In this document: piece by piece, positions 1-6,432 of the stretch
How positions within the stretch are numbered: the stretch's first letter is position 1
How the letters are laid out: each line of letters begins with the position of its first letter
DNA from: a virus
Taxonomy: Duplodnaviria; Heunggongvirae; Uroviricota; Caudoviricetes
Virus record (IMG/VR): IMGVR_UViG_2526164634_000019
Length of the DNA: 6,432 nt
Strand: one strand, 5' to 3'
Program-made: the position numbers and the translations under genes
The notes under the pieces: model-generated
What the model saw: only the letters and a program-made list of their open reading frames with translations
The model's database searches: none
What the model was told of the DNA's origin: nothing

Positions 1-1
1 T

Positions 2-1461
2 GTCACCTGCCCGTCAAAATACCACGCCACAACAGAGAACGGTCATCCGAATCCCAAATGGAACGGGGCCACCATGCGCGACTCCAGCGATTACCTGGTT
101 AACACGTTTTTTGCGGCTGTCCGCAAAAAACTGAACCGCGACGGTCTGCGCTGGTATGGCATCCGCACGGTGGAGCCTCACCATGACGGCACCGTGCACT
201 GGCATATGATGGTCTTTGCTCATCCGGAAGAAATCGACACCATTGTGTCCCACACCCGCGATATTGCCATTCAGGAAGACCGCCACGAGCTGGGCGATGA
301 CATAACTCCGCGCTTTAAGGCGGAGTACGTCGACGGCTCAAAAGGCACACCAACCAGCTACATCGCCACCTACATCGGAAGAACCTGGACAGCCACGCCG
401 TGGATGGCATCGACCCGAAAACGGGCAAGCCACGCGTTGACCACGAAACCGGAAAATCAATGGCCGAGAGCGTGGAGCGCGCCATCGGCTGGGCGCGCCT
501 TCACCGGGTCCGCCAGTTCCAGTTCTTTGGCATCCCCTCCCGTCAGGTGTGGCGTGAACTGCGCCGCCTTGCCAGCCAGATGGCACGCAACCCGGAAGGC
601 CCGCAACGACTGAAGGACGACGCAATGGATGCGGTACTCGCTGCCGCTGATGCCGGGTGTTTTGCCTCCTACATTGAAAAACAGGGTGGCGTACTTGTTC
701 CACGCAAAGACTACCTGATTCGCACCGCCTACGACCTCGCAGATGAGCTGAACGATTACGGCGAACAGAGCGTACAGATTTACGGGATCTGGTCACCACT
801 CATCGGGGAGTCCTCCCGTGTGTGCACGCATCCGGATAACTGGAAGCTGGTAAGACGTAAACCGGAAGCGGAAGACAGCGCCCGCGAAAATGGTTTTGAC
901 CTTCAGGGCGGCCCTGCCGCCCCTTGGACTCGTGGCAATAACTGTCCCCGTGTACAGGAAACAGGCAACAACGGGACAGAACAGCCGGAAGAACGGCCAG
1001 CACCGTGGCCGCAGCTTCCTGACGGCGTTGAAGTAAATGAATGGATGCGCTCACTGAAACGGCACGAACGCCGGGCGCTGATGCGTTCGCTTCGTGACAA
1101 ACAGGCAAAAAACAGCAGCGATGAAATGCAGAACTGGACACAGAGCCGCAAACAGCAGCGGCCTTTGCCTGATAACCACGAGTTACTCGCTAAAGAATGG
1201 CGGGAGTCTGCTGAATCTCTCGGCCTGCATATCGGTGAACAACAGATGCAGCACCTGTTACGGGGCGGCAGCCTGTACGTTGACGGCAGCATCATTGCAC
1301 CGCAGGGATTTGAAATTGTACGCAAACCGGATACCCGCCCGGACAGCCGAATCACGCAGCTCTGGCAGCGTCTGAGCCGTAATCATGGCGTAAGCAGCAC
1401 GGAGATCCGCCATAACCCGGTCGCCAGCTATCTGGCACAGCTGGGGGCGATCAGACCCTGA
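2..1461 (+). pseudogene. HUH rolling-circle replication endonuclease (phage P2 gpA family); 5' end outside window; apparent 1-bp frameshift near 377-381
   Basis: Frame 2 is open from the window edge and gives ...TCPSKYHATTENGHP...GIRTVEPHHDGTVHWHMMVF (HUH motif HWH) ...GTPTSYIATYIG (paired catalytic Tyr, YxxxY). At GGAAG (377-381) this frame becomes low-complexity Ala/Ser/Arg-rich and stops at 613. Frame 1, closed by a TAA at 316-318, takes over at 379 with protein-like KNLDSHAVDGIDPKTGKPRVDHETGK... and runs to TGA at 1459-1461. Restoring one A (GGAAAG) would give a continuous YIATYIGKNLDS, analogous to phiX174 gpA YVAKYVNKK. ORF track pieces are 74..613 and 400..1461. Confidence 0.75.
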
Positions 1462-1507
1462 AGCCGCCGCACGCCTGGCATCCACACTTCAGCAGGACCA
1501 GAACACC

Positions 1508-1711
1508 ATGAAAACACCCGTTACCGTGCTTTCTGACATGCTGCGCGCCATCCGCGACGCAGAGCACGCACAGAGAATCAGTGAAACCACTGAACGCGCC
1601 AGCCGCAAAGCAGACCTGCTGCGGGGTGGCCTGACCAGTGGAAACAAAAAACAGACAGAAACGGGACTCACGAATCCCGTAAATGAGCAAAAAACGCGCA
1701 GTGATATATGA
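1508..1711 (+). CDS. hypothetical small protein (67 aa), basic/hydrophilic, downstream of gene A
   Basis: ATG at 1508 with a weak AGGA 12 nt upstream. Occupies the position of small ORFs that follow A in P2-like phages. Its 3' end overlaps the first palindromic site. No recognisable domain; could be non-coding. Confidence 0.3.
   Translation: MKTPVTVLSDMLRAIRDAEHAQRISETTERASRKADLLRGGLTSGNKKQTETGLTNPVNEQKTRSDI
1661..1680. promoter_or_regulatory. 20-bp palindromic operator-like site ACGGGACT-CACG-AATCCCGT (one mismatch)
   Basis: Inverted repeat read directly: 8-bp arms separated by 4 bp. Near-identical to the site at 1734-1753 and 73 bp (about 7 helical turns) away from it. Confidence 0.5.
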
Positions 1712-1787: not shown

Positions 1788-2747
1788 ATGAAAATTTGTA
1801 TCGACGACGGCTCCACCAACATCAAGCTGGCATGGACTGAGAACGGCGAACGCCGCAACGCCATCAGCCCGAACAGCTTCAAGTCGGAATGGTCTGCGCC
1901 GTTCGGTGGCACGCAGCCCGCGAACTACATGCTTGATGGCGTGCGCTATGGTTTTGATCCGGTCAGCGATCGCTTTGTCCAGACGACCGACACGCAATAC
2001 CAGTACAGCGATGTGAATGTCATTGCCATTCATCACGCGCTGGTCAAATCAGGCATCACACCACAGGAGGTGGATGTGGTTGTCACCCTGCCACTGAGCG
2101 AGTATTTCGACACAAACGCACAGCCGGACATGGCCAACATCAACCGCAAAAAAGCGAACGTTATGCGCCCGGTGGAATACCAGAACGGCGAAGCATTCAC
2201 TATCCGTAATGTACGGGTTATGCCTGAATCCATTCCGGCTGGCTTTAAAGCACTGGCTGACATGAGTCCGTTTGAATCCCTGCTGATTGTGGATTTAGGT
2301 GGAACCACGCTGGATGTGGCAAAGGTTCAGGGACAACTGGCAGGTATCAGCCAGGTGTTTTGCGATCCACACGTAGGCGTTTCCCTGATGGCCGATGCAG
2401 TACTGTCGGTGATGGCCACTAACGGTATGCGTACCAGTCACCACATCGCCAATACCATTATCGAACATCGCCATGATGAAGCCTGGCTGCGCCAGCACAT
2501 CCACAATGACGCGCATTACGCCAGCCTGATGGCGGTTATTCGTGAAAAGGAAGAAACACTGAAACAACGCGTGATCCGCGCGCTGGCGGGTTTTTCGGGT
2601 TACGGGCGGGTGATGCTTGTCGGTGGAGGGGCGGAGATTGTGGCACCCGCTATCCGCGAAGTCTGCGGAGTTAATGCGACTTTCATCGCGGACGGGGTGC
2701 CACAGTTTGCTCTGGTTAATGGGCTGTACGCAATGGACAAGGAGTAA
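1788..2747 (+). CDS. stbA: actin-like ATPase of type II plasmid partition systems (StbA/ParM family)
   Basis: 319-aa ORF with SD AAGGA 8 nt upstream of the ATG. N-terminus MKICIDDGSTNIKLAW and motifs VMPESIPAG, LIVDLGGTTLD, VMLVGGGAE, LVNG match the actin-fold phosphate/adenosine motifs and my recollection of R100 StbA (MLVFIDDGSTNIKLQW...). Not verified by database search. Confidence 0.85.
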   Translation: MKICIDDGSTNIKLAWTENGERRNAISPNSFKSEWSAPFGGTQPANYMLDGVRYGFDPVSDRFVQTTDTQYQYSDVNVIAIHHALVKSGITPQEVDVVVTLPLSEYFDTNAQPDMANINRKKANVMRPVEYQNGEAFTIRNVRVMPESIPAGFKALADMSPFESLLIVDLGGTTLDVAKVQGQLAGISQVFCDPHVGVSLMADAVLSVMATNGMRTSHHIANTIIEHRHDEAWLRQHIHNDAHYASLMAVIREKEETLKQRVIRALAGFSGYGRVMLVGGGAEIVAPAIREVCGVNATFIADGVPQFALVNGLYAMDKE

Positions 2748-2751
2748 ACCA

Positions 2752-3066
2752 ATGACGACACCAACCAGACGGATAAGTTTCTATCTGAAGCCCGCCGCCG
2801 TCAAGAGTGAACAGGAGGCGTGCAATTACCTCGATAGCCTGCCAGCCTCCGAACGCAGCCGCGCGCAACGCGCGGCCTTTCTGGCTGGGCTAGCGCTCAT
2901 AAAGCGCAACCCAGCATTTACCTACTGGATGGCCGAATGGCCAGAGGACAACCTCCCCTTCAATACCGTTAGCATCAAGGAAACATACCAGGATAATCAG
3001 CCTAGCGGAGTTGAATGCAATTTTTATAAAATAAAAAAGAATATTCAGACCTTATTCCCAGAATAA
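2752..3066 (+). CDS. stbB: StbB/ParR-like partition adaptor (likely ribbon-helix-helix DNA-binding protein), 104 aa
   Basis: ATG at 2752 preceded by SD AAGGAG (2739-2744), 4 bp after the stbA stop, so translationally coupled. The track ORF 2617..3066 uses an unlikely TTG start inside stbA. Sequence MTTPTRRISFYLKPAAV...SLPASERSRAQRAAFLAGLALIK resembles StbB/ParR N-terminal regions as I recall them. The last 25 or so codons lie in AT-rich DNA. Confidence 0.75.
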   Translation: MTTPTRRISFYLKPAAVKSEQEACNYLDSLPASERSRAQRAAFLAGLALIKRNPAFTYWMAEWPEDNLPFNTVSIKETYQDNQPSGVECNFYKIKKNIQTLFPE

Positions 3067-3149: not shown

Positions 3150-3992
3150 TCATGATGAAATTGCCGAAGTTTTTTTATCGTGCTGAAGTACCGCAAATGC
3201 CATTAAAACCTCAAGAGAATAGCGGCGATAATACTTAACAAAACCATAATAAAATACTCGGGATGCAGCAATACAAAACAAGAGAAGAAAACAAAAAGGT
3301 AACAGTCTGATATTTATATCTATTAAAAAGGATAGAAGGAGCAGGAACATAAGCAACCAGACTGAAGCGAGAAAAACAAATGTAATGTTTCTACAAAAAC
3401 CATACAAAGCAACATAGTTTTGCATTTTCACCTGATGATTTTTAGAATGTTCATACACATAATGATAAGCAAGGCGAAAAAGATCGCCCCTCAAGCCCTT
3501 ACGTCGATATAGCGTAGATACAGAAAAAACATTTATATAACCATCTCGTATTTGCGGCCAAAAGACTTTAATAAGTATAGAATGCAGTGTGGTTTTATGA
3601 TGTTCTGCTTTATCAAAAGCTGATACAGGAAATAAAAAAACTCCACGAATAAAATTAACTATACTGAACTTAGTATTATGTCGTTTTATTTTCAGGGAGC
3701 TTCTTTTAGAAAACAGATAAATTGAAGGATACCCAAGTTTACTGTTCATGTATTTTTCAATTAAACAGGATGATAGAATAGATATGAAGTGACCTGAAAT
3801 ATATGATAGAACGATTAATACCACATATATAAATACACTTATTATTTCTTTATATTTCAGGATATGGTTAAGAATACCTTCTATATAAACAGGGTTAATT
3901 TCAATAGAAAACAAAAAAAGGATAAACAGGAATAACCCACCTGGAATTAGATAGCCCAAAAAGTCATAAAATGAAAACGGATTCTGTGTCAC
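3150..3992 (-). CDS. hypothetical polytopic membrane protein (280 aa; about 4 predicted TM helices flanking a roughly 125-aa basic central domain)
   Basis: Long minus-strand ORF in AT-rich DNA with a GTG start at 3992 preceded by SD-like AGGGGGAA. Strongly hydrophobic segments at roughly aa 9-29, 49-73, 205-227 and 233-255. Starts 39 bp downstream of the preceding gene stop, so it looks operonic. No recognisable catalytic motif by eye. Confidence 0.7.
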   Translation of the reverse strand: MTQNPFSFYDFLGYLIPGGLFLFILFLFSIEINPVYIEGILNHILKYKEIISVFIYVVLIVLSYISGHFISILSSCLIEKYMNSKLGYPSIYLFSKRSSLKIKRHNTKFSIVNFIRGVFLFPVSAFDKAEHHKTTLHSILIKVFWPQIRDGYINVFSVSTLYRRKGLRGDLFRLAYHYVYEHSKNHQVKMQNYVALYGFCRNITFVFLASVWLLMFLLLLSFLIDINIRLLPFCFLLLFCIAASRVFYYGFVKYYRRYSLEVLMAFAVLQHDKKTSAISS

Positions 3993-4031: not shown

Positions 4032-4529
4032 TTATTTGTTTTTCCGTAAAGGATTAGCTTTCCATCTTCTTACTAACCATTCGAATTCTTGATATGTAGT
4101 ATCCGAATTAATGCTTTCTCTGATTGCTTTAATTAATGGCTCGGCAATATCATATGTCTCTACAACTGTTGTGTAAGATGTTCTTTTTATCATTTTTTCA
4201 TCATAAATACCTTCACGAATACTTACAGCAACTCGCTCGTAAAAATTTAAAATATATTGAAATTTTCGACGCTCGGCCATTTCTTCATCTGTTATTATGC
4301 AACCATCACAAGGAAAAACATAAGAACGAAATGATTTGCCTGAACGATGCACTTGTTTCAGGGTATGCAATGACTCTATATATTGCATATCTTGCCGACT
4401 CTCAAAAAGAAAGTTGGCCGTTTGAGTTTTTTTTGCGGTACGCACATTGTAGATAATGGTTCCAATGGCAACCAAAACGCCAAGCAGAACAATAGCATTG
4501 CTGATGATTTGTAGTGTTATTGGGTTCAT
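4032..4529 (-). CDS. hypothetical single-pass membrane protein (165 aa; N-terminal TM helix plus about 135-aa soluble domain)
   Basis: ATG at 4529. N-terminal ITLQIISNAIVLLGVLVAIGTIIY is a clear TM/signal-anchor segment, followed by a charged soluble domain. AT-rich and co-oriented with the downstream polytopic membrane protein gene. Confidence 0.7.
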   Translation of the reverse strand: MNPITLQIISNAIVLLGVLVAIGTIIYNVRTAKKTQTANFLFESRQDMQYIESLHTLKQVHRSGKSFRSYVFPCDGCIITDEEMAERRKFQYILNFYERVAVSIREGIYDEKMIKRTSYTTVVETYDIAEPLIKAIRESINSDTTYQEFEWLVRRWKANPLRKNK

Positions 4530-5177: not shown

Positions 5178-5747
5178 TCAGGATGTGGGCTGGGTGTCTA
5201 ACAGTGCGTAAGGGTTAAAGCGGATCACCTCTTCGCCAAGCCAGTCATTGATGTGCTTCATGGCCTCCATGACGGGCATCAGCTCGTTAATTGCGTAAAC
5301 CCGCGCGGCCTTCTCCACATCACCAAACGCACTTTTTTCGCCCGGCATCGCCCCCATCAGTTGCGGCGGAACGCGGTGCGCAGCCAGCACATCATCACGG
5401 GATGCCGCCTTAACATTCATGAACTCATCCTTTGCGGTGATCTGCTGGAACGGCAAAATTTGCACCCCTTCTTTGCCCCCGTTGGGCGCATGAATGAGCA
5501 CGTTTTTAAATGCACCACCACCACGCGCACCCTGTAACGTTTCTTTCAGGGAGTCCATGCTTTCGCGGTTTACCTGCGCTGCACCGATGTAGATGATGCA
5601 CCCGGCGTGGGATCCGTTGTCGTAGTACAGTTTTCTGAACATGTCCGCCGAATGAGAAAGGCTGGCCGAGAGTAATGCGCCAAGATATTCCGGCATGCCG
5701 TAGATTTCCTGGTTAATATCCGGATTCATCAGGTGGCACACTTTGCC
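5178..5747 (-). CDS. phage portal protein (P2 gpQ-like), C-terminal part only; 5' portion separated by IS10 insertion
   Basis: Minus-strand ORF ending at the stop at 5180-5178. Translation ...HRVPPQLMGAMPGEKSAFGDVEKAARVYAINEL...WLGEEVIRFNPYALLDT resembles the C-terminus of P2-family portal proteins (from memory). The frame runs straight into the IS10 terminal repeat at 5748 and hits a stop inside IS10 at 5760-5762, so the gene is interrupted. Confidence 0.7.
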   Translation of the reverse strand, partial: GKVCHLMNPDINQEIYGMPEYLGALLSASLSHSADMFRKLYYDNGSHAGCIIYIGAAQVNRESMDSLKETLQGARGGGAFKNVLIHAPNGGKEGVQILPFQQITAKDEFMNVKAASRDDVLAAHRVPPQLMGAMPGEKSAFGDVEKAARVYAINELMPVMEAMKHINDWLGEEVIRFNPYALLDTQPTS

Positions 5748-5770
5748 CTGATGAATCCCCTAATGATTTT
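5748..5770. repeat. IS10 outside-end terminal inverted repeat
   Basis: Exact match to the 23-bp IS10 outside end as remembered. Confidence 0.85.
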
Positions 5771-5793
5771 TATCAAAATCATTAAGTTAAGGT

Positions 5794-5862
5794 AGATACA
5801 CATCTTGTCATATGATCAAATGGTTTCGCCAAAAATCAATAATCAGACAACAAAATGTGCGA
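5794..5862 (-). ncRNA. IS10 RNA-OUT antisense RNA (predicted position)
   Basis: Placed from established IS10 biology: pOUT starts near element position 115 and RNA-OUT runs about 69 nt outward, overlapping the transposase start (RNA-IN). The Dam site GATC at 5814-5817 lies in the pIN region. Not verified independently. Confidence 0.4.
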
Positions 5863-6432
5863 ACTCGATATTTTACACGACTCTCTTTACCAATTCTGCC
5901 CCGAATTACACTTAAAACGACTCAACAGCTTAACGTTGGCTTGCCACGCCTTACTTGACTGTAAAACTCTCACTCTTACCGAACTTGGCCGTAACCTGCC
6001 AACCAAAGCGAGAACAAAACATAACATCAAACGAATCGACCGATTGTTAGGTAATCGTCACCTCCACAAAGAGCGACTCGCTGTATACCGTTGGCATGCT
6101 AGCTTTATCTGTTCGGGCAATACGATGCCCATTGTACTTGTTGACTGGTCTGATATCCGTGAGCAAAAACGGCTTATGGTATTGCGAGCTTCAGTCGCAC
6201 TACACGGTCGTTCTGTTACTCTTTATGAGAAAGCGTTCCCGCTTTCAGAGCAATGTTCAAAGAAAGCTCATGACCAATTTCTAGCCGACCTTGCGAGCAT
6301 TCTACCGAGTAACACCACACCGCTCATTGTCAGTGATGCTGGCTTTAAAGTGCCATGGTATAAATCCGTTGAGAAGCTGGGTTGGTACTGGTTAAGTCGA
6401 GTAAGAGGAAAAGTACAATATGCAGACCTAGG
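5855..6432 (+). CDS. IS10 transposase, N-terminal 192 codons; 3' end beyond window
   Basis: ATG at 5855; frame open to the window end. Translation MCELDILHDSLYQFCPELHLKRLNSLTLACHALLDCKTLTLTELGRNLPTKARTKHNIKRIDRLLGNRHLHKERLAVYRWHASF... matches IS10 transposase. Absent from the ORF track because no stop falls in the window. Confidence 0.9.
   Translation, partial: MCELDILHDSLYQFCPELHLKRLNSLTLACHALLDCKTLTLTELGRNLPTKARTKHNIKRIDRLLGNRHLHKERLAVYRWHASFICSGNTMPIVLVDWSDIREQKRLMVLRASVALHGRSVTLYEKAFPLSEQCSKKAHDQFLADLASILPSNTTPLIVSDAGFKVPWYKSVEKLGWYWLSRVRGKVQYADL

Follow-up and report, generated by a model that had tools for sequence, protein, structure and literature searches.

A portal gene that runs into an insertion sequence and stops there raises two questions: whether the join is a genuine product of transposition, and how much DNA now separates the two halves of the gene. 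We considered both for a 6432-bp stretch of E. coli DNA (hereafter, the window), which is the whole of draft contig AIHD01000044.1 (assembly GCA_000250275.2). Both of its ends are assembly breaks, and at the right-hand one the contig stops at position 685 of an IS10 element. Everything to the left of the element belongs to the right end of a P88/P2-like prophage. This phage part has the same succession of genes (gpA, ParM, partition protein, cargo, cos and Q) as P88-type prophages, and its 5747 bases were found over their full length, at ~98.5% DNA identity, both in P88-group phages and in complete E. coli genomes (279 of 5426). Its ParM allele (EHX44540.1) was found by exact protein look-up on AIHD01000044.1 only.

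Table 1. Features of the window, with the strand and the evidence or remark that goes with each
Feature	Position	Strand	Evidence or remark
Replication gene A, C-terminal part	1-1711		Contig begins 1130 nt inside gpA
ParM	1788-2747		
Plasmid_stab_B partner of ParM	2752-3066		
Cargo membrane protein, 280 aa, multi-pass	3150-3992	minus	P2 variable region
Cargo DUF4760 protein	4032-4529	minus	Pfam, E 1.8e-34; P2 variable region
cos region	between cargo genes and Q		
Portal gene Q, 3' part (codons 160-348 and stop; 189 of 348 aa kept)	5178-5747	minus	Pfam and identity to WP_000087812.1
Native Q sequence CTGATGAATCC (codons L-M-N-P), equal to the first 11 bases of the IS10 end	5722-5732	minus	
9-bp target CACTTTGCC (GGCAAAGTG on the Q sense strand, codons 160-162)	5739-5747		Directly abuts the IS10 terminus
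IS10, positions 1-685 of 1329, IS10-Left type, outside end toward Q	5748-6432	plus	Identity to R100
Outside terminal inverted repeat, 23 bp, CTGATGAATCCCCTAATGATTTT	5748-5770	plus	Identical to the outer Tn10 terminus in R100
In-frame TAG bounding the Q frame 5'	5760-5762	minus	Translation of 5178-5900(-): ...KNH*GIHQGKVCHL...
RNA-OUT antisense RNA gene	5793-5862	minus, toward the Q remnant	Rfam RF00240, model positions 1-70, full-length
Dam site GATC	5814-5817		IS positions 67-70
IS10 transposase, first 192 of 402 codons	5855-6432	plus	ATG at IS position 108

The junction between Q and IS10

The Q fragment matches the Pfam family Phage_portal (PF04860; E 1.6e-11, 44.4 bits against a cut-off of 39.1) over profile positions 116-294 of 321, and its translation, GKVCHLMNPD...DTQPTS*, is 100% identical to residues 160-348 of WP_000087812.1, the intact 348-aa portal protein of E. 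coli 13KWH46. It belongs to the P2-type portal protein Q family both by sequence and by the place of the gene in intact relatives, where terminase gene P lies directly upstream of Q on the same strand and cos follows Q. The closest known counterpart is portal protein Q of P2-like phages (Escherichia phage P88 group, Xuanwuvirus), and the retained 189 residues match annotated portal proteins without a difference. Unlike intact Q, the copy in the window is truncated at codon 160 by the insertion sequence, and its first 159 codons lie off the contig.

All 685 remaining bases of the window are identical to IS10-Left of the Tn10 on plasmid R100 (NC_002134.1) when numbering starts at the outermost base of that transposon, which is fixed by the 9-bp duplication CGCTCTGCC flanking the 9147-bp element. 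IS10-Left and IS10-Right are told apart by 15 diagnostic positions, eight of which fall within the first 685 bases, the other seven (903-1300) being beyond the contig end; at eight positions (24, 25, 27, 47, 83, 107, 410 and 425 of the IS) the window departs from IS10-Right. From 426 to 902 the two types are identical, the next difference being at 903. Judged by its sequence, the element is of the IS10-Left rather than the IS10-Right type over these first 685 bases, which adds precision to an earlier, sequence-only reading of this DNA that had rightly identified an IS10 outside end at 5748.

Four features that mark an IS10 are present: the outside terminus CTGATGAATCCCCTAATGATTTT, a transposase start at nucleotide 108, RNA-OUT, and a target similar to the consensus published for IS10/Tn10, NGCTNAGCN. 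RNA-OUT scored 97.3 bits (Rfam gathering score, 41) and overlaps the start of the transposase. The 192 residues of the transposase that are encoded in the window are identical to the N-terminus of the R100 IS10 transposase and match Pfam DDE_Tnp_1 (5855-6430, plus strand; E 4.9e-09), the C-terminal 210 codons being off the contig. The terminal repeat, RNA-OUT, transposase start and Dam site are all the same as in IS10-Left of the R100 Tn10, with no visible difference in 685 bases. The role of the IS10 terminal repeat and its length of 23 bp are established, as is the function of the GATC Dam site in IS10 biology. NCBI names the element under the IS4-like element ISVsa5 family.

On the plus strand, GGATTCATCAGGTGGCACACTTTGCC passes directly into CTGATGAATCCCCTAATGATTTTTATC, with the break between 5747 and 5748; in the gene, this point separates nucleotide 477 of Q from nucleotide 478, and codon 159 from codon 160. 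Over the stretch inspected, the window matches the intact 13KWH46 DNA up to 5747 and then diverges. The intact allele runs from CACTTTGCC into AGGGCGAAAC, the window from CACTTTGCC into CTGATGAATCCCC; beyond 5747 the former continues AGGGCGAAACTGG... and the latter CTGATGAATCC.... Read upstream, the Q frame stays open for only four codons into the IS before it meets the TAG, so that the 5' boundary of the frame lies inside the IS. Because the switch falls exactly at the terminal base of IS10 and a typical IS10 target lies beside it, we judge the Q/IS10 junction to be a true transposition junction and no chance resemblance. The sequence-only reading had described IS10 as abutting and interrupting the portal gene, with the Q frame entering the element at 5748 and terminating inside it, and these statements are borne out by the position of the switch, the 685/685 identity and the placement of the TAG. 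Its orientation of the gene, with the N-terminal half toward the right, agrees with the minus-strand position of Q and the location of the frame's 5' boundary in the IS.

The junction was not seen elsewhere in the collections searched. A 30-mer spanning 5747/5748 had no match in species-representative genomes, IMG/VR viral contigs or JGI metagenome contigs, and BLAST did not find the Q/IS10 junction in the 5426 complete E. coli genomes or in PLSDB plasmids; three BLAST matches with 100% coverage carry IS10 in the cargo region and a Q without insertion. The predicted right junction, in which an inside or outside end of IS10 is followed by CACTTTGCC and Q, had no match in metagenome or viral contigs. 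The only new fact here is the insertion site: IS10, Q and the disruption of prophage genes by insertion sequences are already known.

The target site and a copy of the IS10 end within Q

The nine bases that abut the IS10 terminus had been proposed as its target, and their composition supports that proposal. CACTTTGCC agrees with the consensus NGCTNAGCN at four of the six specified positions, a score of at least 4/6 being reached by only 3.8% of the 9-mers in the phage part of the window. For a baseline of real sites we used 57 distinct IS10 outside-end junctions from IMG/VR contigs; 45 of them score 4/6 or better, and 4/6 is the mode. Real IS10 targets close to CACTTTGCC include CACTTAGCC, CACTTAACC, TGCTTTGCA and the CGCTCTGCC of R100, and it is this similarity among sites that causes BLAST alignments to other IS10 copies to run 10-20 bases into the flank. 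A second copy of CACTTTGCC would be expected on the far side of the element.

Not far from this target, Q contains a native copy of the first 11 bases of the IS10 end. Together with the real end, CTGATGAATCC forms an 11-bp inverted repeat with a 15-bp spacer; it is the only other copy of the 11-mer in the window, and it is also present in uninterrupted Q alleles. We estimate the chance of landing within ~50 bp of such an 11-mer at ~5e-5 per insertion. IS30 and IS911 choose targets resembling their own ends, and a transposase bound to the pseudo-end CTGATGAATCC might likewise have steered the transpososome to this site in Q, so that more than the target consensus would have decided the site, an idea that we find scarcely credible. 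As a general rule for IS10, pseudo-end targeting was rejected, as no such tendency emerged from either (i) the 57 IMG/VR junctions, among which no end-like flank was comparable (the best matched at 8 of 11 bases), or (ii) a scan of 185,579 species genomes (596 Gb) for a 9-mer copy of the end at most 31 bp from a true IS10 end, which gave six loci, none of them IS10. Six loci are of the order expected by chance (by our estimate, ~2 for 22 specified bases). The 11-base copy beside the IS10 end appears to be a coincidence.

The same part of Q is one at which many assemblies break. Contigs of many independent assemblies end at Q nucleotides 480-482 (ten loci) or begin exactly at nucleotide 499 (ATGAATCC; three loci). 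These points bracket the insertion site and carry no IS sequence at the contig ends; they appear to reflect sequence variants between co-resident P2-like prophages. A 160-aa Q fragment that ends at the insertion codon was considered as the missing half of the gene and rejected: its contigs stop at Q nucleotides 480-482, with no IS at their ends, most likely on account of such variants.

Other forms of damage to Q were also encountered. In several assemblies (nine loci) the gene is split by frameshifts or stops, for example into halves of 164 and 183 aa, or, at one locus, by a TAG. From these several broken alleles, portal pseudogenes, or assembly errors, would seem to be common in the P88/P2-like prophage family. 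A recurrent cryptic P2-like remnant (six loci) is without terminase gene P and the N-terminus of Q, and has O adjoining the Q remnant, with a breakpoint ~70 nt upstream of the IS10 site. This remnant carries a cargo pair consisting of HTH/Peptidase_M78 and DUF3368 and is integrated beside a FecCD gene.

What lies beyond the contig end

We propose that an IS10-Left-type copy (IS4 family) transposed by cut-and-paste into Q of a P88/P2-like E. coli prophage. Its point of entry separates codon 159 from codon 160, and the target there, CACTTTGCC, fits the preference of IS10 moderately well. Our preferred reading, to which we assign a probability of roughly 0.65, is that this was a simple insertion that left a solitary 1329-bp IS10 with a 9-bp duplication. 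Codons 1-159 of Q, followed by terminase gene P, would then be found elsewhere in the draft assembly, on a different contig. More than one IS10 copy in the genome is the most likely reason for the assembler to have stopped inside the IS; the contig end suggests that there are at least two, a point that does not discriminate between the models.

Simple insertion is what most comparable copies display. Twenty IMG/VR copies of IS10 had enough sequence for their arrangement to be resolved: 16 (6 of the Left type and 10 of the Right type) stand alone within a perfect 9-bp duplication, and 4 have other arrangements. None of the 20 continues into the interior of Tn10, in a sample that is biased against 9-kb transposons in predicted prophages. 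Among the 5426 complete E. coli genomes, the IS10 segment is present in 1862 (median, 2 places per genome; maximum, 45), and the junction between IS10-Left and the Tn10 interior in only 356. Another solitary case is a close parallel to the window. Strain KFu014 (NZ_CP091712.1; locus L001, 9003-10331) carries a solitary IS10-Left, identical at 1329 of 1329 positions and flanked by the duplication TACACAACC, in a related P2-like prophage. The type of IS10 and the kind of prophage are the same as in the window, but the KFu014 element sits in the variable cargo region, between the ParM/partition genes and cos, and leaves Q intact, whereas that in the window is inside Q. Strains EC22 and E07 gave the same search row as KFu014, the comparison being one of rows rather than of sequences. 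To judge from the search-result feature list, MDR_56 and MSI001 have an apparent IS421 in this type of prophage.

We also looked for products of the missing half of the gene. Full-length IS10 measures 1329 bp and its inside end is ...GGGGATCTCTCAG; on the sense strand of Q the inside end reads CTGAGAGATCCCC, and the outside end of IS10-Right reads CTGATGAATCCCCTAATGATTTTGGT. Read-through proteins predicted from Q codons 1-162 joined to an inside end (176 aa) or to the outside end of IS10-Right or IS10-Left (217 or 177 aa) were absent from the protein collection by exact look-up with two start choices, and a homologue search with the fusion predicted for Tn10 returned no portal fragment that covered the tail. 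The truncated portal as called from the window (183 aa) and a variant of 172 aa had exact matches in other genomes only.

Instead of standing alone, the IS10 could be the left arm of a complete 9147-bp Tn10, with jemA, tetR, tetA(B), tetC, tetD and IS10-Right preceding the N-terminus of Q. Tn10 has the order IS10-Left, jemA-C, tetR, tetA(B), tetC, tetD and inverted IS10-Right, with IS10-Left the less active of its two copies. This arrangement would suit the Left type of all eight diagnostic positions in the window and an outside end that faces the target as it does at the left terminus of the R100 Tn10, and the 356 complete genomes with an IS10-Left/Tn10-interior junction count in its favor. 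The pair of Left and Right copies, identical over 426-902, would in addition present the assembler with a repeat, and the contig stops at 685. Left-type copies are known, however, as solitary insertions with 9-bp duplications of their own and at many copies per genome, the 20 resolvable prophage-borne copies include none that enters the Tn10 interior, and the 217-aa Q::IS10-Right read-through protein predicted by this arrangement is absent from the protein collection. On balance we consider a Tn10 at this site unlikely.

Two further accounts would place the rest of Q differently. IS10 and Tn10 are able to promote adjacent deletions and inversions, and such an event following insertion could have displaced the N-terminus of Q, perhaps with P and further late genes, leaving a remnant of larger scale. 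We think this quite improbable. The expected N-terminal Q fragment was indeed not found by exact protein look-up, the two frameshifts in gene A (described below) fit a decaying prophage, and E. coli P2-like remnants without P and the Q N-terminus do exist, though with a different breakpoint; but a single amino acid difference, another gene call or a gene cut short by the end of a contig would explain the failed look-ups equally well, 16 of the 20 resolvable copies on prophage contigs are simple insertions, and no direct evidence speaks for a rearrangement. The other account, which strikes us as extremely improbable, is that the Q/IS10 junction is a chimera of the draft assembly and that Q is intact in the real chromosome. 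The contig is short (6432 bp) and broken at both ends, its two single-base indels in gpA could be sequencing errors, and Q contains the 11-base match to the IS10 end. Against this, the first base of IS10 is exactly where the switch falls, and a typical IS10 target lies beside it. A chimera formed through the shared 11-mer would join the N-terminal side of Q to the IS through CTGATGAATCC, an arrangement that is not seen, and a fold-back artefact would run on into the reverse complement of Q, which the window does not.

Consequences for the prophage

P2 genetics has established Q as the portal, which is needed both to assemble heads and to package DNA. With the portal domain split, a portal would be expected from neither fragment, and no DNA-filled heads from the prophage alone; loss of packaging is a reasonable expectation, and infectious particles should not arise without outside help. 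Because Q closes the P-Q transcription unit and is followed by cos, a polar effect on other late genes would not be anticipated. What we see, in a single E. coli draft genome, is one P88/P2-like prophage probably disabled by an insertion sequence that is very common; that prophages decay in this way is textbook knowledge, and, as a real but ordinary gene disruption, the event matters little beyond annotation. If the element were a Tn10, the prophage would also carry tetracycline resistance, which would be of modest epidemiological interest, though the phage could not package it.

The sequence-only reading had gone on to suggest that the cargo systems would be fixed in the host, and this part of it overreaches. 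Loss of the portal prevents neither excision nor loss of the prophage, a co-resident P2-like prophage could supply Q, and precise excision of IS10, which occurs at low frequency, would reverse the defect. Integrase and excision functions are absent from AIHD01000044.1, and there is no sign on that contig of damage to them. Disruption of Q may keep the cargo (the ParM partition module, the DUF4760 protein and the membrane protein) in the chromosome for longer.

Gene A is altered as well, a point on which the sequence-only reading was silent. Relative to intact alleles, an A is missing after 378 (GGAAAGAAC to GGAAGAAC) and an extra G is present at 1449 (GGGGGCATCAG to GGGGGCGATCAG); the native frame is disrupted by both indels, with a premature stop at 611-613. 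These changes represent either real pseudogenisation or draft-assembly error. If they are real, the prophage would be replication-defective too; if they are errors of the draft, they warn that this contig should not be over-read.

RNA-OUT and its promoter (pOUT) point into the Q remnant. Since Q is set apart from the cargo genes by terminator-like hairpins (minus strand, 4848-4830 and 4572-4548), we do not propose that read-through from pOUT activates the latter. As for the cargo itself, none of the defence-system models matched the DUF4760 protein, and the 280-aa membrane protein gave a weak PADLOC match to Csx27 (E 1.1e-05).
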